Positions 21,748 through 30,845 of a stretch of 64,000 nt of DNA are shown here, in pieces (within the stretch, counting starts at the first letter, position 1; the number at the start of each line of letters is the position of its first letter). The notes under the pieces are model-generated. The model did no database searches. It was not told the origin of the DNA and was given only the letters and a program-made list of their open reading frames with translations. Location of the stretch: the NCBI RefSeq assembly GCF_013167455.1, contig NZ_CP038328.1, one strand, 5' to 3'. The position numbers and the translations under genes are program-made. The DNA is from Escherichia coli O157:H7 (GTDB lineage: Bacteria; Pseudomonadota; Gammaproteobacteria; Enterobacterales; Enterobacteriaceae).

Positions 21748-21816
21748 CCACCAGAATTATTTCCCCACCAGTTCACTTACCTCTTTCACCGTCTGATTAA
21801 ACCGCTCTGACTCAAG

Positions 21817-22131
21817 TTAAACACCTAACGCCCGACGCCCCAGCGCCATTGCTGCTTTTATTGTGGAACCGAATCCCATAAAGAAATCAGCAACCAGATC
21901 ACCAGGTCGACTACTGGCATTGATTATTTGCCTGAGCATATCCGCCGGTTTCTCGCACGGATGTTTACCCGGGTAGAACTGAACGGGCTTATGCGTCCTG
22001 ACATCGGTATAAGGCACGGAGACTGATACGGAGAAATAGCGCCGGTGAGATTTAAACTCATCCAGCAATTCAGAAGATTTGCAATTCAGTGAATCATGAG
22101 ATACCACCAACTGGTGGTAGGATTGTCTCAA
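21817..22131 (-). pseudogene. Remnant of a beta-class N6/N4 DNA methyltransferase (C-terminal part only)
   Basis: 104 aa ORF with ..FYPGKHPCEKPADMLRQIINASSRPGDLVADFFMGFGSTIKAAMALGRRALGV*, matching the HPxxKP and DPFxGSGTT-type AdoMet motifs, but lacking the upstream DPPY catalytic region; AT-rich foreign DNA begins right at its 5' end. Confidence 0.6.
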
Positions 22132-22301
22132 CTAGTGAGCTTTATACATTTAAGTGCGATGCACAGATAATAACCACGCCAATGGAATATCACACACAAA
22201 ATTGATAGAACACTAACAATAAGCCACAAAATAATTCACAATTTATTTTTACAGTGGATAAGTAGCAAAGTAGTGAATGTGAATAACGGCTAACTAAGAT
22301 G

Positions 22302-22330
22302 AAACAAAAAGCCCCACAATATGTGGGGCT
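22302..22330 (-). terminator. Rho-independent terminator ending the cargo cassette
   Basis: Minus strand agccccaca tatt gtggggct followed by TTTTTGTTT. Confidence 0.65.
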
Positions 22331-22388
22331 CCTTCGCGATTTATAGTAAAATAATCGATTCTCTAGCTGAAAAAATCTTTAAAAATTA

Positions 22389-22622
22389 TCAGCAATACGC
22401 AAGTTTTTTACCGTCATCCGGTACTAGTTTGATCACTACACCAGGATTCTTACGCTCTAACATCTGAGTTTGACTCCATGTAATACCAAAGGTTTCCATT
22501 GGAGATGCATTGCCAGCAAAGAGTTCGGCGACGACTTTAGCTGCCTCAATCTCTATCTGCTCATGATGTTTCATAAAAATCCCCTTGTTCAGCACTAAGC
22601 TGTAGTTGCTTCTTTGAAGCAT
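22389..22622 (-). CDS. Small hypothetical protein (cargo cassette gene 2)
   Basis: 77 aa ORF; more likely 61 aa from ATG at 22574 (MKHHEQIEIEAAKVV...) preceded by AAGGGGA Shine-Dalgarno; low GC. Confidence 0.4.
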   Translation of the reverse strand: MLQRSNYSLVLNKGIFMKHHEQIEIEAAKVVAELFAGNASPMETFGITWSQTQMLERKNPGVVIKLVPDDGKKLAYC

Positions 22623-22765
22623 AAAGGCAACAAAGTTTGTTACCTGAAGATGTATAAAGTAAAGCGTAGTACATTTTGTGTGTGCTTTGTGTGGATCCAG
22701 ATTGCATCAACTAAAAGAGGTTTTCAATACTTTTGTAATGATTCTGGAGAAATTAAGAATCTAAC

Positions 22766-23308
22766 TCACACTGATTGGTTAGGTAAAACGCTCCTAAGCA
22801 CCATTGCGCAACCACCTCGTTCGTAATCAGCAATGTACTCAAAACCACTTTCAGTATAGTATCTTATTGCCCCATCAACTGGACTAACTAAAGCTATCGA
22901 ATCAATAGATTCACCCTGAAGGTTCAGAAATCGTGCATATGCAGAGAAGCAATCCAAAACGATACCAAGCATCTGATGGTCTAGGTCTTCATGTGCATCA
23001 TTACGTTTTTCCATCCAGCAAATATGCACCGCATTTTTCGGCTTACAGTAACACCCAAATGCAAATCCAATAGGCTCCCCACGATAATAAACAACTAGTT
23101 TTATCGGGTGTTCTTCCATCATATCCATAAACACTCGCGACTTTAGTCCGGGATCCCACCGCAGTTTATTGTTAGCCTTGAGGAACTCCATATCTTTTAG
23201 TACCAGCTCGTCGGCATATACGAGCCCTAACGACTTATGAGGGAAGCGCCCTTTTAAATACTCTGCAACATTTTTAAATACTGCTGTTTGGAAGGCTTGA
23301 AACATCAT
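22766..23308 (-). CDS. Hypothetical protein with GNAT-like C-terminal signature (cargo cassette gene 1)
   Basis: 180 aa; C-terminus ..SIALVSPVDGAIRYYTESGFEYIADY.. resembles GNAT motif B, but no canonical Q/RxxGxG acetyl-CoA loop; roughly 40 percent GC against about 52 percent in flanking phage DNA. Confidence 0.55.
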   Translation of the reverse strand: MMFQAFQTAVFKNVAEYLKGRFPHKSLGLVYADELVLKDMEFLKANNKLRWDPGLKSRVFMDMMEEHPIKLVVYYRGEPIGFAFGCYCKPKNAVHICWMEKRNDAHEDLDHQMLGIVLDCFSAYARFLNLQGESIDSIALVSPVDGAIRYYTESGFEYIADYERGGCAMVLRSVLPNQSV

Positions 23309-23337
23309 GTCGATCCAGACGAGACGAAAGTTTAAAT

Positions 23338-23367
23338 TCTACCTACTCGCCGAATACCATTTCAATG
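23338..23367 (-). promoter_or_regulatory. Candidate sigma70 promoter for the cargo cassette
   Basis: Minus strand TTGAAA, 18-bp spacer, TAGAAT, about 25 nt upstream of the 23308 start codon. Confidence 0.35.
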
Positions 23368-23386
23368 CCACACATCTAAAATTCCG

Positions 23387-23414
23387 AAAAAAAACCCGCA
23401 CATCAGCGGGTTTT
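23387..23414 (-). terminator. tR'-like intrinsic terminator downstream of the late promoter
   Basis: Minus strand aaaacccgc tgatgt gcggg followed by eight T; about 50 nt downstream of the predicted late promoter. Confidence 0.75.
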
Positions 23415-23459
23415 CTACTTTTTATTAAAGCCGGACACACAATGCCTATCATTGAGAAA

Positions 23460-23488
23460 ATATTATCCATTTTTTTTGAAAAATGCAA
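23460..23488 (-). promoter_or_regulatory. Late promoter pR'-like (Q-dependent antitermination site)
   Basis: Minus strand TTGCAT, 17-bp spacer, TAATAT located 30-60 bp downstream of the Q stop codon. Confidence 0.6.
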
Positions 23489-23519
23489 GCATCATGTCGC
23501 CATTTTCGTCGAAAATCAT

Positions 23520-24272
23520 TCATCTCGTCACTTTCCTCAATTGTGTCTCAGCATACGCTTCTTCCTGCCAGCACTTTGTAACCAGTTTATCAATGACATC
23601 TGCATATCCTTTGTACCACTGATAATCCGTCAGGTCTGGTACCAGCTTCTGGACATGAAGCCGCGCCAGTGTGGTTGGTAAACGGCTAAACCGGTTTCCA
23701 TTGCAACGCCCACAAACCTTATAAACAGGCGTGCCATGAAGCCTGGTTCTTTTTTCATCCAGGACAATACCTTTACCCTTACACCCTCTGCACGCTGTGC
23801 TGACTTCTCCCTTACCATGACAATGCTGACACAGTTCCTTCACCCACTCTTCCTTGATAACAGATTCCCCGCTTCTGGAGTGTTTCACCACCTCGCGCAA
23901 TACATCATGAAATCCAGTACCAGCACAATGCTCACAGCGAGCCTTACTTGCCGCAGACCTGGAATAATCAGCAAAGGCAAAATTCACAAGGTAAGGAATG
24001 ATCTGTAGCCGGGTTTCTTCACTCAATTTGTTCAATGTCGGGTTATCCAGTGCCATCGCGTAATTGAGCAGACCTTCAATCGCAAACTGAGGATCCTGAA
24101 CACCAACTTTTGCCAGGAATAAGGCAAACCCAAGCGGTGCTTTCGACTGCACCATCCCCTGCGCAGCCATTACATCCGTAATTGTTAAACCACCAGAGCC
24201 TGTCGCCGGTGCGTCATCGCTCAATTTTGGAGATTTTGGGGAGTAATATTTCGGTAAGGCTTCAAAGTTCAT
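23520..24272 (-). CDS. Q: Late-gene antitermination protein Q
   Basis: 250 aa with CxxC...CxxC zinc-binding motifs (CEHCAGTG, CQHCHGKG, CRGCKGKG), followed by promoter and terminator. Confidence 0.85.
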   Translation of the reverse strand: MNFEALPKYYSPKSPKLSDDAPATGSGGLTITDVMAAQGMVQSKAPLGFALFLAKVGVQDPQFAIEGLLNYAMALDNPTLNKLSEETRLQIIPYLVNFAFADYSRSAASKARCEHCAGTGFHDVLREVVKHSRSGESVIKEEWVKELCQHCHGKGEVSTACRGCKGKGIVLDEKRTRLHGTPVYKVCGRCNGNRFSRLPTTLARLHVQKLVPDLTDYQWYKGYADVIDKLVTKCWQEEAYAETQLRKVTR

Positions 24273-24285
24273 GCTCGTTCTCCAC

Positions 24286-25281
24286 TTACGCCAGTACGCC
24301 TATTGCCAGCGCACGATCGATAAAACGAAATATCAGCTCCAGCTGGGAGCCATACTTCTCTTCAAATGCCACGGTATCCGCATGCAGCTCGTCGTGATGC
24401 TTTCTGCACAAAGGCAACACAAAGAGGTCATGCGCTTTTGTACCCATTCCTCCCTGACCGTGACCTATCAGGTGGTGGGGATCATCAGCAGGCTTTCCAC
24501 AACATGCACACGGCTGTGTCTTAACCCAGCGCGTGTACTTTTCATTAACCCAGCGGCGACGTTTTGGGCGTAACATAAAAGACTCCGGCGACTCAGGATC
24601 CACTTTCAGCGCCAGCACCTTTTTCGCTTTATCCTGGATGATGCTGGTGGCAGGAACCGAAGGCACAAGGTCACTTTCCCGGGTAACAGACGGCACAACA
24701 GGCTTCGGTAATCTAAGTGCCTTACGGGCTGCACTTTCCGGTAAGGCATCCGCCAGGTCATTACGAATCAGCCACCAGCACAGTTCCGGCATTGTCACAA
24801 CGTGACTGTCATCAAAACCGAGATCCCGACGCACAACAGACAACACCCAGCGGGCACAGTTATCCGTTGCCATTGATTCCAGCCGTTCCGTGAACTGATC
24901 GCGCAGCTGGTTATCGCAGTGCCAGCACAGACGGATTGCGCCCGGAGCGTGTCGCATTGTGGTCATGTTCTCGCTGTGCCAGTCGGAATGAGGCCACTGG
25001 CAGCCTTTTTCACGAAGTAACCAGCTTTCAAGACATTCCACGCCACCAGCACGACGGATCACTGCCTCATTGCGGAACACGGCCCGAACGGCAGGATCAT
25101 CCGCCAGCGGTTGTGATGCCGCCGGAACGGCACCACTGGCGAAAGATGAATAACGTTCCGGCTCAGGCTCCAGCAGGACACGCCCCTGCATAAACAGGGG
25201 CATCAGCTCTGAACCTGGCCTGAACAATACGATCCCCATACGCGGGGCAATTTCAGGAGTCAGTAGTGCTCTCACGGTCAC
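24286..25281 (-). CDS. DUF968-family prophage protein (YdfU-like) with HNH-like C-terminus
   Basis: 331 aa; C-terminal ..QPCACCGKPADDPHHLIGHGQGG...CRKHHDELH; typical gene upstream of Q in lambdoid prophages. Confidence 0.7.
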   Translation of the reverse strand: MTVRALLTPEIAPRMGIVLFRPGSELMPLFMQGRVLLEPEPERYSSFASGAVPAASQPLADDPAVRAVFRNEAVIRRAGGVECLESWLLREKGCQWPHSDWHSENMTTMRHAPGAIRLCWHCDNQLRDQFTERLESMATDNCARWVLSVVRRDLGFDDSHVVTMPELCWWLIRNDLADALPESAARKALRLPKPVVPSVTRESDLVPSVPATSIIQDKAKKVLALKVDPESPESFMLRPKRRRWVNEKYTRWVKTQPCACCGKPADDPHHLIGHGQGGMGTKAHDLFVLPLCRKHHDELHADTVAFEEKYGSQLELIFRFIDRALAIGVLA

Positions 25282-25282
25282 C

Positions 25283-26092
25283 TCAATGAACGGTATCGAG
25301 CAGCTTTAACAGCTCAGGGAATCGGGATTCGAAGAAATGCGGCTGCGTCTCGCGCGGATTTGCGGGACTGGTGATGTTCTTGCCGAACATGCAGCCTTTC
25401 GCTGTCAGCGACCAGAATTTTTTGATGTTGTTAATCGCAGTGCGGCTGTATCGTTCACGTTGTTCAACGATCCCCAGCTTCGCCATCTGGTGATATGCCT
25501 GATTAGCTGTCAGGCGGATACCATACTGCTTCAGCAGTGCACTCAATGATAGCGTGGGGCGGCTTGAGCCATCAGGCGCGTCAGCAGGAGCATCAATGGC
25601 ATAGCGCGGTGCCAGATTCGGTAAGCCAACAGCCTCCTGGAGTTTCTGACAGGCACCAAGCACTGAAGAGTTAGACAGGTTTAACTCCCGGCGCATAAAG
25701 TCCAGCAGGATCACGCCAGCCTGCATCTTGTCAGCAGCCTGTCCGGATAATTTTTCCGGTGCGCTGGTTACCATATCGAAAGTACGGATCACCTTCAGAT
25801 GGAATGACGGGCTGATCCACATTGCATAGGCATACACCAGTTCCTTGCAGACATACGTTCCCCGTTCATTTCCCCCATGAATCACACTCACCGGGTCAAC
25901 ACCCAAATTCTGGGTGTTGGTCAATTCATGAACAAGCTCAACAGTTTGTTGGCTGGAAAGAAACTTTCCCGGCTCCTTGGTTCTGGCATTTGCACCAGAT
26001 GCTACTGCTGCGCGATGCAGATCGTTCAGGCTGTAACGCCCATAAGCATCACGACGAACTTCAATACCATCAATGACCATCAGATTATTCAT
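25283..26092 (-). CDS. KilA-N domain protein (antirepressor-like)
   Basis: 269 aa; N-terminal KilA-N-like region. Confidence 0.7.
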   Translation of the reverse strand: MNNLMVIDGIEVRRDAYGRYSLNDLHRAAVASGANARTKEPGKFLSSQQTVELVHELTNTQNLGVDPVSVIHGGNERGTYVCKELVYAYAMWISPSFHLKVIRTFDMVTSAPEKLSGQAADKMQAGVILLDFMRRELNLSNSSVLGACQKLQEAVGLPNLAPRYAIDAPADAPDGSSRPTLSLSALLKQYGIRLTANQAYHQMAKLGIVEQRERYSRTAINNIKKFWSLTAKGCMFGKNITSPANPRETQPHFFESRFPELLKLLDTVH

Positions 26093-26111
26093 ACTTCGTT
26101 TCTCCTCTTAA

Positions 26112-26501
26112 TCAGGCGGCTGCACCCGCCGTTTTCTCGTACTTACTGATAGTGATCTCGACCTTCCCTTCCGGGATAACCGGTCCCCACTCCACCAGCA
26201 TTCTTTTCACCTGACTGTCGTCTTCCCACACACCCGCGTGGGTCAGGGCGTCAAACAGCGCCTTGTTATAGTTGTCCAGATCGCGGATCCGGTTATCCGG
26301 AGGAAACAACACGATCTCCACTGAAGCAGGTGCCGACGTTGGTTTCGGCAGACGACGTAACTGCTCAACTATTGCTGCGCACGCCGCGCTCTGGAATTTT
26401 CGCCCCGCCGCGCTTATCAGGCTCTTACCAGCAAACGCCCCTTTGTTGGGGTGTCGCCAGTACGTGTTCACGCTGGGCGGAAAAGGCAGGATCAGCTTCA
26501 T
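26112..26501 (-). CDS. rusA: Holliday junction resolvase RusA
   Basis: 129 aa MKLILPFPPSVNTYWR... with ...RDLDNYNKALFDALTHAGVWEDDSQV core. Confidence 0.9.
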   Translation of the reverse strand: MKLILPFPPSVNTYWRHPNKGAFAGKSLISAAGRKFQSAACAAIVEQLRRLPKPTSAPASVEIVLFPPDNRIRDLDNYNKALFDALTHAGVWEDDSQVKRMLVEWGPVIPEGKVEITISKYEKTAGAAA

Positions 26502-26824
26502 ACTTTCAGGTCCCTCTCATGTAACCAGTGGGTTGCACGCAGCCTTGCGTTTTCCTCACCGGCAAGCAGTGCGCGGATAATCCCGACCGCCTCGCTGTCG
26601 TCGTCCTTCACCGCGGTATGAAGCGTTATCCCCCGGGCCACGCCACGCTTTATCGTGATGACGCCTTTTTTCTCCAGTGCGCGAAGATGCTCCACCGCTG
26701 CATTCACTGAACGGTATCCCAGCATGGTTGCCACCTCCTGATTGGTTGGCGGGAAGCCACGTTCTTTCTGATAAGAAATCAGCATATCCAGCACCTGCTG
26801 CTGGCATTGAGTTAACGTCGTCAT
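26498..26824 (-). CDS. LexA DNA-binding-domain-like protein lacking the S24 peptidase domain
   Basis: 108 aa; ..QQQVLDMLISYQKERGFPPTNQEVATMLGYRSVNAAVEHLRALEKKGVITIKRGVARGITL.. aligns along the LexA N-terminal winged-helix domain; no Ser/Lys peptidase region. Confidence 0.65.
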   Translation of the reverse strand: MTTLTQCQQQVLDMLISYQKERGFPPTNQEVATMLGYRSVNAAVEHLRALEKKGVITIKRGVARGITLHTAVKDDDSEAVGIIRALLAGEENARLRATHWLHERDLKV

Positions 26825-27474
26825 GCCGCCATCTCCCTGACCAGTTTTTCTGCCTGCTGGCGAACCTGCGCCAGAAAGGCCTCACCACATGCCTCAAGTT
26901 CATAGCGCCCGATGTAGCTGATTGCCGGTCCCTTCCAGGTCTTGTCGAAAACAGCAATAGCACCAGCGAAGAAAGCGCCTGTCGGCACCTGCTTCTCATC
27001 CTTCGGGATAAACCAGGCAGGCAGTTCAAAACCAATACGCCCGCGAATAAAAGCAATATGATCTGCATCTTCCGGCCACCACACTTCGCTGGTGGCAGCT
27101 TTGATCAGGAAAACATAGCGCCCGCCTTTATCACGCATGGCACTGGCATGCTTCATGATGTAACGCATGCCGGTGATGTATTGCCCCTCATGCTGACTGG
27201 CGCGGCTGTATGGGGGATTACCAAAGGCAGCACCTTTAAGCTCCGCAAGACGTTCTGACCAGTCATGCGCCAGCGCGTTGTCTTCCGCAGTGTAATAAGC
27301 GGCACATTTGGCGTTATCACCGTCAGTGAACAGATCCAGAACAAACGGGCCAAACAGGGTGTTAATTCCCCAGAAAATGTTGTCCGGCGTGCGCCACTGA
27401 TCGCCCACTTCCTTCAGTTCATGGGCTGGTTTGTTCCGCAGCTCCACCAGCGCCTGGCAATATTTATTACTCAT
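26821..27474 (-). CDS. Phage N6-adenine DNA methyltransferase (Dam-like)
   Basis: Start MSNKYCQ... at 27474 (TAATG overlap with upstream gene); contains NPPY catalytic motif (AAFGNPPYS). Confidence 0.8.
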   Translation of the reverse strand: MSNKYCQALVELRNKPAHELKEVGDQWRTPDNIFWGINTLFGPFVLDLFTDGDNAKCAAYYTAEDNALAHDWSERLAELKGAAFGNPPYSRASQHEGQYITGMRYIMKHASAMRDKGGRYVFLIKAATSEVWWPEDADHIAFIRGRIGFELPAWFIPKDEKQVPTGAFFAGAIAVFDKTWKGPAISYIGRYELEACGEAFLAQVRQQAEKLVREMAA

Positions 27475-27968
27475 TAAGCCCCCACGTAATTCCCTGACAG
27501 ATACCACTCTTCACCCGATACAGCGCGCTTGCTGCTTTTCCGTAAGCACCGCTCACGACGCGCCAGAAAATTGTTTCGTTCTGGCTGGGAGTGGCTTTCA
27601 CGGAATGCCGCCATCCACACCGTTGCAGCACGACGGTATAAGCCCCTGGACTCCAGTTCTTCAGCCTGGCGGGTCAGGCACAAAATCACCCGGGGATCGT
27701 TAGTGCCGACATAGAAATTGCGCACAGGTCTGGTTTCACGAACTGGTTGTGGTTCCGGCTCCTGCGCTCTCTCAGTCAGGCGCGGGAAATGTCTGCGTGT
27801 ATCCCCTTCACAACGGTGAGCCACACGCCCACTCTGACGTAACTTGCTTGCAGACTGCAGAACGCGCTGCCGTGAGTAACCTGCAAAAGCATCCGCAATG
27901 TCTCCGGAAGTACAGCCCGGATGGGCTTCAATGAATTTCTGAACGTCATTCAAAAGACTCATGCTCAC
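27474..27968 (-). CDS. Hypothetical regulator, PerC/Pch-like C-terminal region (tentative)
   Basis: 164 aa; ..ELESRGLYRRAATVWMAAF.. resembles the PerC family signature; assignment from memory only. Confidence 0.4.
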   Translation of the reverse strand: MSMSLLNDVQKFIEAHPGCTSGDIADAFAGYSRQRVLQSASKLRQSGRVAHRCEGDTRRHFPRLTERAQEPEPQPVRETRPVRNFYVGTNDPRVILCLTRQAEELESRGLYRRAATVWMAAFRESHSQPERNNFLARRERCLRKSSKRAVSGEEWYLSGNYVGA

Positions 27969-28906
27969 CCCCTGAATCCTGCCGGGATCTGGCTGTAGTC
28001 CACGTTGTCGTAACTGGCTTTGAAGTACGGGTCCTCGCGTTTTTCGGTGTACGTGCTGACGGACGGCGATAAGCGCAGGGAAAGCTCATCCCATTTTTCC
28101 CGCAGCTTCGACGGGCTGAGCACGTTACGGCACCAGAACGGATCGCGACTGACGCGGCTGTACATCTCGCAGATTTGTTTATGAGTACGACCATCCTGCA
28201 CACACATCAGGCGAATTTCGTTTGCCCAGGCTGTCCAGTTCGGTTCTTTGGGACGAACCACCTCGCCGTCACATTCGGCGGCATGCTCGTACAGGGCGAT
28301 GATTTTTTTCCAGAGCCACTGTGCACAGGTCAAATCATCCTGCGTCCCCCACTGGCGCTTTTTAGGGCTGAATACAACCGCATCAGGATGGCGAGTTAAA
28401 AAATCCTGTTCATCCGTCTGCGTGTCCGGTTGCGAAGCGTCCGGACGAGAAGGTTTTTTATCTGACGGATCATGTTTTGATTTTACTGACGGATCCCCGC
28501 CAGATTCTGACGGGTGAAAACCCGCTTTTTTGCCAGATTTCGACGCATCAAATTTTGACGGGTCAGATTTTGATGCGTCAGATTTTGACGGGTCAGAATC
28601 TGACAGTTGAGAAAATGCCGCTGCCTGAAGCTTCGCAACGTTAAGCTGATAAACATTCGACGCATTGCGGTTACCCTGGCGACGCGCCTTACGCGTTAAC
28701 CAGCCTTCTGCTTCCAGCCGTGCGATAGCCGTTCTGACGGTGCTCATCCCCGCGCCAATCTGGCGGGCAATGGTTTCAATTGATGGCCAGCACACACCTT
28801 CGTCATTACTGAAATCAGCCAGGCGGGCCATAATTGCCACGCTGGATAACTTCATGCCTGACGCAGCGCAACCATCCCATACATAGCCGGTTAATTTAGT
28901 GCTCAT
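27965..28906 (-). CDS. Replication initiator (lambda O-like) with internal iterons
   Basis: 313 aa; N-terminal winged-helix region, central repetitive SDSDPSKSDASKSDPSKFDASKS linker encoded by the iteron array. Confidence 0.7.
   Translation of the reverse strand: MSTKLTGYVWDGCAASGMKLSSVAIMARLADFSNDEGVCWPSIETIARQIGAGMSTVRTAIARLEAEGWLTRKARRQGNRNASNVYQLNVAKLQAAAFSQLSDSDPSKSDASKSDPSKFDASKSGKKAGFHPSESGGDPSVKSKHDPSDKKPSRPDASQPDTQTDEQDFLTRHPDAVVFSPKKRQWGTQDDLTCAQWLWKKIIALYEHAAECDGEVVRPKEPNWTAWANEIRLMCVQDGRTHKQICEMYSRVSRDPFWCRNVLSPSKLREKWDELSLRLSPSVSTYTEKREDPYFKASYDNVDYSQIPAGFRG
28450..28610. repeat. Iteron array / phage origin of replication inside the initiator gene
   Basis: About eight imperfect direct repeats of the tttTGACGGGTCA type at roughly 18-19 bp spacing. 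Confidence 0.7.
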
Positions 28907-28915
28907 GACCGACCT

Positions 28916-29254
28916 CTATTTCCCTGAATTTACGACGAAACTGTTCGAGCGGGCTGAAGCACTCATGCTCATAGCCTTCGCGGAGGTAGATAACCCGTTG
29001 TGTTTCCGGTTCCCAACGAATGACTCTGACGGGCACTCCGTAGTGATCTTTGAACCAGCGGTTAACTTGTCGCAAAGGACTGTCTCCTTTTGCCTGTTGA
29101 AATCACCCACAGCCCACTCTGCAAAGCTGTGGGTTACAATTTCCCTGTCACCTGGTACATTCACTGCATAGCAATACTCCACCTTCGCTTTTCCACCCGG
29201 TACAGGAAGTGCAATCAGTTGCGAGCGACGGTAGTGTGTTGTTAAACTGTTCAT
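28916..29254 (-). CDS. Hypothetical early protein (e14 YmfM-like position)
   Basis: 112 aa ORF between the CII-like gene and the replication initiator. Confidence 0.4.
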
Positions 29255-29802
29255 GCGTTAGTTTCTCCACAGTCACGACACGCCACGGCGCCCGGAGCTG
29301 CACACTCGCGGGCGTCATTACTTTCTGAAATGCAAAAAATTTTGTAGACCAGTGCTGCATGCTCCTGCAGCTTCGAAATTGAGAGGTACAGCTCGTCGTT
29401 AATTGCTGTCTTCTCATGCGGTTCCACTACACCGTCTTCAATTGCTGAACGAATCTGTTTTGAATAACTGCCGATCTGTTCAATGACCTCCAGCAGGCGT
29501 TGGTTGATATCGGCGTTGTCCACATCCTCGACATCAGGAAGAGACACAAAGACGCCATTTGCAGACTGCGCCACAGCGTCAGCAATGAAGTGAGTTCCAC
29601 CAGCACGTTGCAAAATCATTGCCCATCCCAGCGGGAAAATCTGATCGCCATCGGCACGAAGGCGGTTAAATAATGCGTTCTCTGTTACATCCAGCCAGTC
29701 AGCAGCTTCAGCGTACCCCCCCGGCAACGCTGCGATAGTTTTTCTGACAGCTTTCACGTACCACTCAGGCTGTTTTTCTACTTTCCAGTGATGCTTACCC
29801 AC
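29251..29802 (-). CDS. Phage regulatory protein, CII-like (e14 YmfL-like position)
   Basis: 183 aa, GTG start preceded by AGGAGG, immediately downstream of cro. Confidence 0.45.
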
Positions 29803-30055
29803 GGTTCACCTCCTGTTCCTGTGGTTTAAACCCATTCTGGTTTTGGCTAGATTGAAAACGTGCCGGATAAAGAATCTGCATTTCGCTGACTTCACCCTTA
29901 AAAAAATTGGCTAAACGTTCTGCAAGCTCGATAGATGGAATCTGCTCCAGCCTCTCAATACGACTCAACGTCGCTGGATTGACTTGAACACCCGCAGCAA
30001 CATGCTGCAAAGTGAAACCATGCGCCTTACGCACATTTCGTAATGGTGATTGCAT
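29795..30055 (-). CDS. cro: Cro-like HTH repressor
   Basis: 86 aa; XRE-type HTH (..VRKAHGFTLQHVAAGVQVNPATLSRIERLEQIPSIELAERLANFF..); divergent from cI. Confidence 0.8.
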   Translation of the reverse strand: MQSPLRNVRKAHGFTLQHVAAGVQVNPATLSRIERLEQIPSIELAERLANFFKGEVSEMQILYPARFQSSQNQNGFKPQEQEVNRG

Positions 30056-30152
30056 ACGCCCTCCAAATATTGCGCGTTATGCATGTTATTTCACGCAATT
30101 ATTTTGCGCAAGTTGATTTGCTTATCACGCAATAAAGAAATGTAATAAACGC
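30056..30152. promoter_or_regulatory. Right operator / divergent promoter region between cro and cI
   Basis: 97-bp intergenic region containing TTGC-N7-GCAA type sites (TTGCTTATCACGCAA at 30118-30132; TTGCGCGTTATGCAT at 30070-30084). Confidence 0.65.
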
Positions 30153-30845
30153 ATGAACATAGGAAACCGAGTCAGACAACTTCGCCAAGCGAAGAACATG
30201 AAAATCGCCGATCTCGCTGAAGCGATAGGAGTAGATGCGGCGAACATCTCGCGCTTAGAAACGGGTAAGCAAAAACAATTTACCGAACAAACACTGAGTA
30301 ATATTGCCAAGAGCTTAGGTGTTGATATTGCTGATCTCTTTACCTCTGCCCACAAAAGTAATACTGTATATAAAAACAGTAATAATGAGGATGTTGCGCA
30401 GGTGAAGGATGTGTTCCGTATTGAAATGCTGGATATCAGTGCCAGTGCGGGAAATGGCCTTATCCAGGGCGGTGATGTCATTGATGTGATTCATGCCATC
30501 GAATACAGAACTGATAATGCTGTATCAATGTTCGGCGGACGACCAGCCAATCACATCAAAGTTATCAACGTTCGTGGGGACAGTATGTGTCCAACCATTG
30601 AGCCAGGAGATCTCATCTTCGTTGATGTCAGCATCAATCAGTTTGATGGTGATGGTATATATGTCTTTGGTTTTGATGACAAAATATACGTTAAAAGACT
30701 TCAAATGATTCCTGACAAACTGCTGGTGATTTCTGATAACCAGATTTACCGTGAATGGGGAATTACTAGCGAAAACGAACACCGATTCATGGTCTTTGGA
30801 AAGGTCTTAATCAGTCAGTCGCAAACCCTTAAGAGACATAATTAA
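30153..30845 (+). CDS. cI: CI-type prophage repressor (HTH plus S24 LexA-like peptidase domain)
   Basis: 230 aa; N-terminal HTH (..IADLAEAIGVDAANISRLETGK..), C-terminal ..GDSMCPTIEPGDLIFVD...KRL.. autocleavage domain. Confidence 0.9.
   Translation: MNIGNRVRQLRQAKNMKIADLAEAIGVDAANISRLETGKQKQFTEQTLSNIAKSLGVDIADLFTSAHKSNTVYKNSNNEDVAQVKDVFRIEMLDISASAGNGLIQGGDVIDVIHAIEYRTDNAVSMFGGRPANHIKVINVRGDSMCPTIEPGDLIFVDVSINQFDGDGIYVFGFDDKIYVKRLQMIPDKLLVISDNQIYREWGITSENEHRFMVFGKVLISQSQTLKRHN

Follow-up and report, generated by a model that had tools for sequence, protein, structure and literature searches.

Two described proteins consist of little more than the DNA-binding domain of LexA. One is the N-terminal domain (NTD) of Escherichia coli LexA itself (residues 1-84, the autocleavage fragment; structures 1lea and 3jso). 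The other is gp6 of the Bacillus tectivirus GIL01, a truncated LexA homologue of 66 amino acids (aa) whose binding site is not an SOS box and which switches on the late promoter P3 (Fornelos et al. 2018, PMC6182141). In this report, we analyze a prophage gene for a further protein of this kind, 108 aa long, which lies at positions 26498-26824 (minus strand) of a 64,000-nucleotide stretch of DNA from E. coli O157:H7 (contig NZ_CP038328.1 of assembly GCF_013167455.1). This whole stretch is called the window below, and the gene and its product are called LexA-like.

The LexA-like protein has the same predicted fold as the LexA fragment and a near-identical recognition helix, and both lack the protease and dimerization domain. 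It differs in being encoded by a stand-alone gene in a lytic operon instead of arising as a cleavage product, in carrying Val in place of Glu44, in having a 35-aa helical hairpin instead of the hinge, and in ending in LKV. Its likeness to gp6 is that both match Pfam family PF01726, have only the DNA-binding domain of LexA, are phage-encoded and belong to the early genes. However, gp6 has no tail, GIL01 is a tectivirus whereas the phage considered here is of the tailed lambdoid, SfII-like kind, and late control in the latter is exerted by a Q antiterminator. A BLASTP comparison of gp6 with the LexA-like protein gave no alignment at E <= 100. Because the two lack similarity and each resembles the LexA of its own host, they are best seen as independent captures, one of a Bacillus LexA and one of an enterobacterial LexA.

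We propose, with a probability of roughly 0.4, that the LexA-like protein is a non-cleavable stand-in for LexA that re-occupies SOS-type operators during lytic growth. The proposed outcome, in which SOS boxes stay repressed despite activated RecA, is the same as that of non-cleavable LexA alleles (lexA3 Ind-, S119A, K156A), GIL01 gp7, the plasmid-encoded PsiB and DinI-like proteins. Of these, gp7 keeps LexA stably bound to DNA and prevents it from being cleaved (PMC4551915). The LexA-like protein would differ from such anti-SOS factors in that it would replace LexA at the operator, not protect LexA or inhibit RecA.

Domain identity and loss of the protease

The gene and the parts of its product are as follows.

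26498..26824, minus strand: gene for the LexA NTD only, 108 aa, an open reading frame (ORF) from ATG; supported by PF01726, PHROG 362, RefSeq and GenBank annotation, and the ratio of nonsynonymous to synonymous substitution rates (dN/dS)
26618..26824, minus strand: winged helix-turn-helix (HTH), codons 1-69; helices 6-22, 28-35 and 40-52, beta hairpin 56-58/66-68 (AlphaFold and Foldseek)
26669..26710, minus strand: recognition helix SVNAAVEHLRALEK, codons 39-52; S39, N41, A42 and E45 kept, E44 replaced by V (alignments)
26516..26602, minus strand: C-terminal helical hairpin, codons 75-103, with helices 75-88 and 93-103; candidate module for dimerization or partner binding (AlphaFold)

This ORF is the sole long one that spans positions 26498-26824. 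Annotation was transferred from E. coli O157:H7 ECP19-598, to a stretch of which window positions 6498-46824 are 99.995% identical. An original prediction, made from the letters of the window, held that the 108-aa protein aligns with the LexA winged-helix domain, and every comparison bears this out. PF01726 (LexA_DNA_bind) is covered whole (model positions 1-65 of 65, E = 2.9e-19; score 69 bits, cutoff 23.7), and the predicted fold lies within 1.4-1.6 Å of 1lea and 3jso over 67-69 residues at ~50% identity (Foldseek). A phmmer search of PDB sequences likewise retrieves E. coli LexA (1lea, 1jhh, 3jso; E ~1e-15), and ungapped identity to LexA residues 1-69 is 35/69 (51%).

The same prediction described the protein as devoid of an S24 peptidase region and thus non-cleavable, and both statements hold. 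No match to Peptidase_S24 was found with Pfam even at E <= 1, and the NCBIfam lexA equivalog model, TIGR00498, aligns only over positions 1-91 of 203, with a score of 70.6 bits that falls below its cutoff of 110.95. Measured against LexA proper, the protein has the N-terminal winged helix, but not the S24 domain with its Ser119/Lys156 dyad, which in LexA also serves for dimerization. The missing S24 domain is not a frameshift artifact, because the stop codon overlaps the start of rusA (ATGA) and the same product of 104-108 aa is conserved in hundreds of genomes. As no autocleavage domain is present, self-cleavage triggered by activated RecA cannot inactivate the LexA-like protein.

The recognition helix of the phage protein is RSVNAAVEHLRAL and that of LexA is RSPNAAEEHLKAL; over residues 38-50, the two proteins differ only by P40V, E44V and K48R. 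The residues through which LexA contacts DNA are Ser39, Asn41, Ala42, Glu44 and Glu45 (PMC3091678). Four of these five are kept by the phage protein (S39, N41, A42 and E45), as is H46. Judged from its sequence, binding of the LexA-like protein to SOS boxes is plausible.

The protein matches PHROG 362 over its full length (E = 3.8e-59, residues 1-108 against positions 1-106 of 106). It also shares the phage or prophage location, the combination of NTD and helical hairpin, and the gene position directly upstream of rusA that characterize this family, which is labeled 'transcriptional repressor'; other named members are mEp460_046 and the SfV homologue NP_599074. RefSeq names the product WP_000210155.1, 'LexA family transcriptional regulator', and GenBank names the gene in Shigella phage SfII SfII_44, 'LexA DNA binding domain protein'. 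The PHROG and RefSeq labels are names given by homology, and no experiment behind them was found. Text searches of the literature found no functional work on the gene, and the papers on Stx phages that use the label 'LexA family transcriptional regulator' mean cI-type repressors. The homology-based names were already known, and gp6 is a precedent for the general idea of a phage LexA domain that lacks S24; as far as text searches show, the function, the conserved hairpin, the family-wide replacement of Glu44 and the fixed place before rusA are undescribed. The defense-system library PADLOC returned nothing meaningful for the LexA-like gene or its neighbors, the methyltransferase excepted.

Distribution and selection

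Of 5426 complete E. coli genomes, 2232 (41%) contain the LexA-like DNA, with up to four copies each. The gene also occurs in 51 phage records, which include mEp460, 1720a-02 and Stx2a, Stx2c and Stx2k phages, and in at least 583 IMG/VR stretches. Homologues of 62-100% identity are found in Citrobacter, Salmonella and Hafnia. In a Nei-Gojobori comparison with the Salmonella homologue, dN/dS is 0.12 for the whole gene, with values of 0.04 over residues 1-70 and 0.26 over the tail. Such low ratios indicate purifying selection and, therefore, a working gene rather than a decaying lexA fragment.

Operon context and expected timing

The host prophage is of the SfII/SfV/mEp460 type and is integrated at tRNA-Thr(cgt) beside proA. 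In cI and cro, it is essentially the same as Shigella phage SfII. The early-right operon, on the minus strand, runs through cro-like, ymfL/cII-like, replication genes, PerC/YfdN, Dam, LexA-like, RusA, KilA-N, DUF968/HNH-like and Q antiterminator genes. The neighbors that bear on the argument are listed here.

30153..30845, plus strand: cI-type repressor with HTH_XRE and Peptidase_S24 domains (Pfam), of the self-cleaving type; protein 100% identical to SfII cI (tblastn)
26821..27474, minus strand: phage Dam-type N6-adenine methyltransferase (PF05869, RefSeq); its stop overlaps the LexA-like start (ATGA)
26112..26501, minus strand: rusA, encoding a Holliday-junction resolvase; start codon and LexA-like stop overlap (ATGA)
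25283-26092, minus strand: KilA-N protein, part of the conserved downstream block
24286-25275, minus strand: DUF968/HNH-like protein, part of the same block
23520-24272, minus strand: Q antiterminator, part of the same block

The LexA-like gene overlaps both of its neighbors by 4 nt (ATGA start/stop), and a consensus scan found no promoter-like site in front of it. Because the gene is placed inside the early-right (lytic) operon without such a site of its own, it would be made after derepression or infection, with the delayed-early genes. The gene layout thus points to expression during lytic growth, not in the quiescent lysogen. The original prediction had also suggested that the protein might hold the prophage's own induction repressed. 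This suggestion does not fit, since a product of the lytic operon, made only after derepression or infection, cannot check induction of its own prophage in a lysogen. A role after induction, either in re-silencing SOS boxes or in competing at them, is plausible.

Synteny was counted in 59 related IMG/VR loci with enough flanking sequence. The gene directly downstream is rusA in 58 of these, making it the one invariant neighbor. It also comes straight after the LexA-like gene in relatives with 65%, 49% and 44% identity, whereas the 40%-identical relative has a 67-aa ORF between the two. Dam is directly upstream in 47/59 loci and absent in 12/59, and is therefore dispensable for the association. 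The upstream position is variable in general, being held by Dam, a larger methylase, a replication gene or PerC, and the downstream order through DUF968 and Q is the same in Citrobacter, Salmonella and more distant prophages. The fixed linkage to rusA could stem from inheritance as a block and from translational coupling, or else from a functional link with recombination.

Database proteins that combine PF05869 with PF01726 were considered as a clue to function, but were rejected as products of deletion or gene calling. In one related locus (L046, 9968-10327), dam has been lost through a precise natural deletion that joins its remaining first 10 codons in frame with the LexA-like ORF, which explains the 'Dam + LexA_DNA_bind' fusions in databases. 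Sb44 of ST64B (297 aa) contains the Dam domain only. Elsewhere in the operon, the replication-protein gene (27965-28906, minus strand) contains two adjacent imperfect palindromes, GACGCATCAAATTTTGAC/GTCAGATTTTGATGCGTC and GTCAGATTTTGAC/GTCAGAATCTGAC, at window positions 28542-28604; these are probably the phage origin.

SOS boxes in the window and in related phages

Three SOS boxes in the window are candidate targets of the LexA-like protein.

30362..30381: near-consensus SOS box TACTGTATATAAAAACAGTA inside cI, in the linker between HTH and S24, 209 nt past the ATG; candidate phage target
45983..46002: host dinB SOS box CACTGGTAAAGTATACAGTG, just upstream of dinB (44913-45968, minus strand, located by identity to the annotated genome); candidate host target
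50251..50270: host dinJ SOS box AGCTGAATAAATATACAGCA, just upstream of the dinJ ORF (50285-50545, plus strand); candidate host target

The dinB and dinJ boxes had been named in the original prediction, and they are indeed in the window, in front of their genes. TACTGTATATAAAAACAGTA is the only perfect CTGT-N8-ACAG in the window and the only strong LexA-type operator in the prophage; it is identical to the umuDC operator. A box recurs at the corresponding codons of six cI genes (aa identity 50-100%), whose linker residues differ and in which only Thr-Val...Ser (aCTGTa...cAGt) persists. The five examples from outside the window are these.

mEp460: TACTGTATGTAAAAACAGTA; cI 96% identical to that of the window (aa)
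ST64B: TACTGTATGTAAACACAGTG; cI 83% identical (aa)
Klebsiella P7641: TACTGTGCATATAAACAGTG; cI ~70% identical at the DNA level (aa identity not computed)
Eeyore: TACTGTATGTAAATCCAGTG; cI 67% identical (aa)
Cronobacter ENT47670: TACTGTAGATACATACAGTG; cI 50% identical (aa)

In the sequences retrieved, the coordinates of the cI boxes are 7568-7587 (L004), 7498-7517 (L002 and also L003), 6210-6229 (L090) and 6207-6226 (L091, which is ENT47670). Since the box is kept although the linker residues are hypervariable, the constraint acts at the DNA level, and the cI-internal box is very likely a real LexA operator. It might act as an obstacle to transcription of cI or as an internal promoter under SOS control. 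Regarding the latter, no promoter arrangement overlapping the box and common to the six phages was found on either strand. In a set of 59 IMG/VR loci whose upstream sequence is long enough, the 26 loci with an SfII-type cI all have the box, and the other 33 have no upstream box.

The Stx 'bully phage' 1720a-02 (KF030445.1) carries both the LexA-like gene and the cI-internal type of SOS box. The reported ability of this phage to suppress induction of a co-resident prophage has been credited to its Cro, and the preprint is silent on the LexA-like gene. In ENT47670, the early-left region contains a second very strong SOS box, TACTGTATATAAATACAGTT (L091, 12408-12427).

Strong boxes also occur at other sites in related prophages. 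In L046 (10765-10784), the SOS box TACTGTATTTATGAACAGTG lies in the 150-bp RusA/KilA-N intergenic region, before a variant KilA-N (antirepressor-like) gene, and is accompanied by a possible TTGGGT-16-TACTGT promoter; the KilA-N allele of the window is preceded by a 19-nt spacer with no box. In many relatives, among them L016 (13671-13690) and L088 (11904-11923), the strong box TACTGTAAAAATAAACAGTG covers codons 3-9 of a gene for a 350-aa N6/N4 methyltransferase downstream of Q. The window retains a remnant of this gene:

21760-22107, minus strand: methyltransferase remnant, first 234 codons missing

As those codons are missing, the remnant is without its SOS box.

The best circumstantial support for SOS-box binding comes from a prophage type whose LexA-like protein is 40% identical to that of the window. 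Here, a TTGCAA-17-AATAAT promoter is followed at once by the SOS box ACCTGTACATTCATACAGTA (L098, 6531-6579, and the same in L099), and the box precedes an operon of ORF124, LexA-like, ORF67, RusA, DUF968 and Q. This arrangement is known from a single prophage type, with two loci retrieved and three contigs on record. It resembles the autoregulated promoter of lexA. In this case, Q would be turned on directly by SOS, and the LexA-like protein could control its own synthesis.

The C-terminal tail

The AlphaFold model of the 108-aa protein was built on 24 sequences and has a mean predicted local distance difference test (pLDDT) score of 80. Scores are ~83-86 for residues 1-69 and 87-89 for helices 75-88 and 93-103, which are separated from the domain by a low-confidence linker (70-74). 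Foldseek found no structural match in the PDB that extends beyond the NTD into the tail hairpin. An exhaustive HMMER search of 1.84 billion representatives returned 4611 matches. Besides true LexA, nine further 50%-identity clusters (~105-135 aa) carry the domain together with the same tail pattern, at 38-53% identity, and the alignment shows the pattern retained down to ~40% identity. Because domain and tail occur together in nine diverged clusters, the hairpin is a defining, old feature of a distinct family. In the predicted model, conserved hydrophobic residues (I82, I83, L86, L87, L95, W100 and L101) are exposed on the hairpin, which suggests oligomerization or partner binding. The hairpin may replace the absent dimerization domain of LexA.

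The C terminus of the LexA-like protein, LKV, takes the place of VAA in LexA1-84, an end that Neher and colleagues reportedly recognized in 2003 as a signal for ClpX. LexA cleavage products are normally cleared by ClpXP/Lon, and operator-bound LexA has an extensive NTD-NTD interface (PMC3159453). The phmmer alignment runs on to LexA residue 86 and sets LLAGE of the tail against VAAGE of LexA, a weak match that places A88-G89 opposite LexA A84-G85. Because this Ala-Gly varies among homologues (LLANE, LLVGE, LLAKE and others), LLAGE was not read as a cleavage site. The idea that the protein is a substrate cleaved in trans at the aligned Ala-Gly likewise found no support: the dipeptide is not conserved, and the segment is predicted to be helical. 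For cleavage in cis, the protein has no catalytic domain.

Among the top 150 HMMER matches, 15 (P0130, P0131, P0153, P0156, P0159, P0162 and nine others) have two LexA domains in tandem and are mostly ~140-350 aa long. The five whose sequences were examined are 141-164 aa long and lack S24. From their sequences, the tandem proteins look like 'single-chain dimers' of the LexA NTD, which would be another way to replace a lost dimerization domain.

Evaluation of alternative explanations

Several observations weigh against re-occupation of SOS boxes by the LexA-like protein. The only characterized phage homologue with the NTD alone, gp6, has a distinct site and acts as an activator. At position 44 (window 26693-26695), true LexA sequences in the alignment keep Glu, whereas the residue is Val here and V, A, T, F, L or Y in all aligned members with NTD and hairpin. 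As a result of this family-wide replacement, specificity or affinity may be shifted, and exact SOS-box specificity is uncertain; loss of Glu44 could make recognition of one base looser or different, or the missing negative charge could simply increase affinity. In a rare member from Citrobacter, the helix has diverged much further (NTIAGH) and no SOS box lies nearby, which argues against uniform SOS-box specificity in the family. In 19 of 59 loci with enough sequence on both sides, no strong SOS box occurs within 10 kb. Co-occurrence of gene and box was sought and rejected, since the cI box tracks the type of cI and not the LexA-like gene: ST64B, P7641, Eeyore and ENT47670 have the cI box and no LexA-like gene in the regions examined, and the box is therefore not dependent on the gene. 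The LexA NTD alone is a weak operator binder, and dimerization through the tail is putative, a tethered two-copy AlphaFold construct having scored too low to inform on it (pLDDT 60, predicted template modeling score 0.36). Part of this evidence favors the main rival explanation, which we regard as somewhat unlikely: a phage-specific regulator in the manner of gp6, whose LexA domain, helped by the loss of Glu44 throughout the family, has drifted to a private operator and activates or represses a phage promoter instead of SOS boxes, with a target that could be in the rusA/DUF968/Q block or in the late region. The precedent of gp6, the altered position 44 and Citrobacter helix, and the many carriers without a nearby SOS box are all consistent with such a regulator, as is the movement of the gene with a fixed rusA/DUF968/Q block across 40-100% identity, whatever the immunity type. 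However, the rest of the helix is near-identical to that of enterobacterial LexA, far closer than gp6 is to the operator logic of its host LexA, and gp6 and the LexA-like protein are independent captures without pairwise similarity. Moreover, late transcription is already served by Q, and inverted-repeat scans (window 21800-30200 with the early and late regulatory regions, and the Citrobacter prophage) revealed no convincing alternative palindrome; the best short-range repeats in these scans were the origin-like repeats within the replication gene.

The constancy of rusA as a neighbor (58/59 loci, and relatives down to 40% identity, usually with the 4-nt overlap), set beside the variable upstream gene, raises another explanation, in which the protein is an accessory DNA-binding or adaptor protein of a recombination module tied to RusA, and perhaps to DUF968, that would, for instance, recruit or regulate junction resolution or protect branched DNA rather than control transcription. 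The exposed hydrophobic residues of the hairpin could dock on such a partner. We consider this improbable. The conserved residues belong to a helix that reads DNA sequence rather than to a protein that binds DNA by its structure, RusA acts alone as a homodimer, one relative has a 67-aa ORF between the two genes, and block inheritance with translational coupling can explain the linkage. It is still harder to credit a pseudo-substrate or decoy, whose tail would dock in trans into the catalytic cleft of LexA, cI or UmuD, or would itself be cut there, and so modulate cleavage dependent on activated RecA. The extent of the phmmer alignment, with Ala-Gly at the matching place, prompts this reading, and Kim and Little are said to have reported intermolecular cleavage by the C-terminal domains of LexA and CI in 1993; but the Ala-Gly is not conserved, and the segment is confidently predicted as a helix where LexA has a beta-strand loop. 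Least credible of all is a non-functional remnant of a captured lexA kept only by the conserved operon. Although both functions of the LexA C-terminal domain are missing and several database copies are frameshifted or truncated, the dN/dS of 0.04-0.26, the length of 104-108 aa kept across genera, the tail motif kept to ~40% identity and the presence in 2232/5426 complete E. coli genomes contradict decay.

Proposed mechanism and biological implications

The LexA-like protein has lost the S24 protease and dimerization domain and gained a conserved two-helix C-terminal hairpin. In the mechanism that we propose for it as a non-cleavable LexA stand-in, after inactivation of cI or after infection, the early operon would supply a stable LexA DNA-binding domain that is insensitive to RecA and whose synthesis is coupled to that of dam and rusA. 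This protein would bind LexA-type operators (CTGT-N8-ACAG or a close variant), probably as a dimer held by the hairpin and by NTD-NTD contacts of the kind that LexA makes on DNA. SOS boxes vacated by host LexA would then be occupied again. Likely targets would be the host SOS regulon and, where present, phage boxes: the one internal to cI here, and those at the KilA-N gene, the late methyltransferase gene and the operon promoter in relatives. During lytic growth, SOS functions and rivals under LexA control would thus be damped in a way that does not respond to RecA. In this phage, cI transcription could also be shut off through the internal box, committing the phage to lysis. Of this scheme, the domain, the lost protease, the selection, the operon position and the presence and conservation of the boxes are shown; DNA specificity, oligomeric state, the time of expression and all physiological effects are inferred.

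A bolder version, which we offer as speculation, is that nearly half of E. coli strains carry a RecA-proof LexA stand-in. After induction or infection, it would silence the host SOS regulon, including ruvAB (leaving junctions to RusA), as well as rival prophages and colicins that LexA controls. Phages of the SfII type would in addition use it to lock the lytic decision, through binding to the cI-internal operator.

Should SOS boxes not be bound by the LexA-like protein, it would be just another small phage regulator of a familiar fold. The SOS response governs mutagenesis, persistence, release of toxins and colicins, and prophage induction, and it has a single off-switch, the cleavage of LexA. 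An uncleavable LexA domain that occurs in 41% of complete E. coli genomes, Stx2a and Stx2c phages included, as well as in phages that convert the serotype of Shigella, would modify this response in many strains, and it could shape competition among co-resident prophages. The family also provides a natural experiment in the reuse of a repressor domain after loss of its dimerization and sensor half, with a hairpin added here and a tandem duplication in other proteins.

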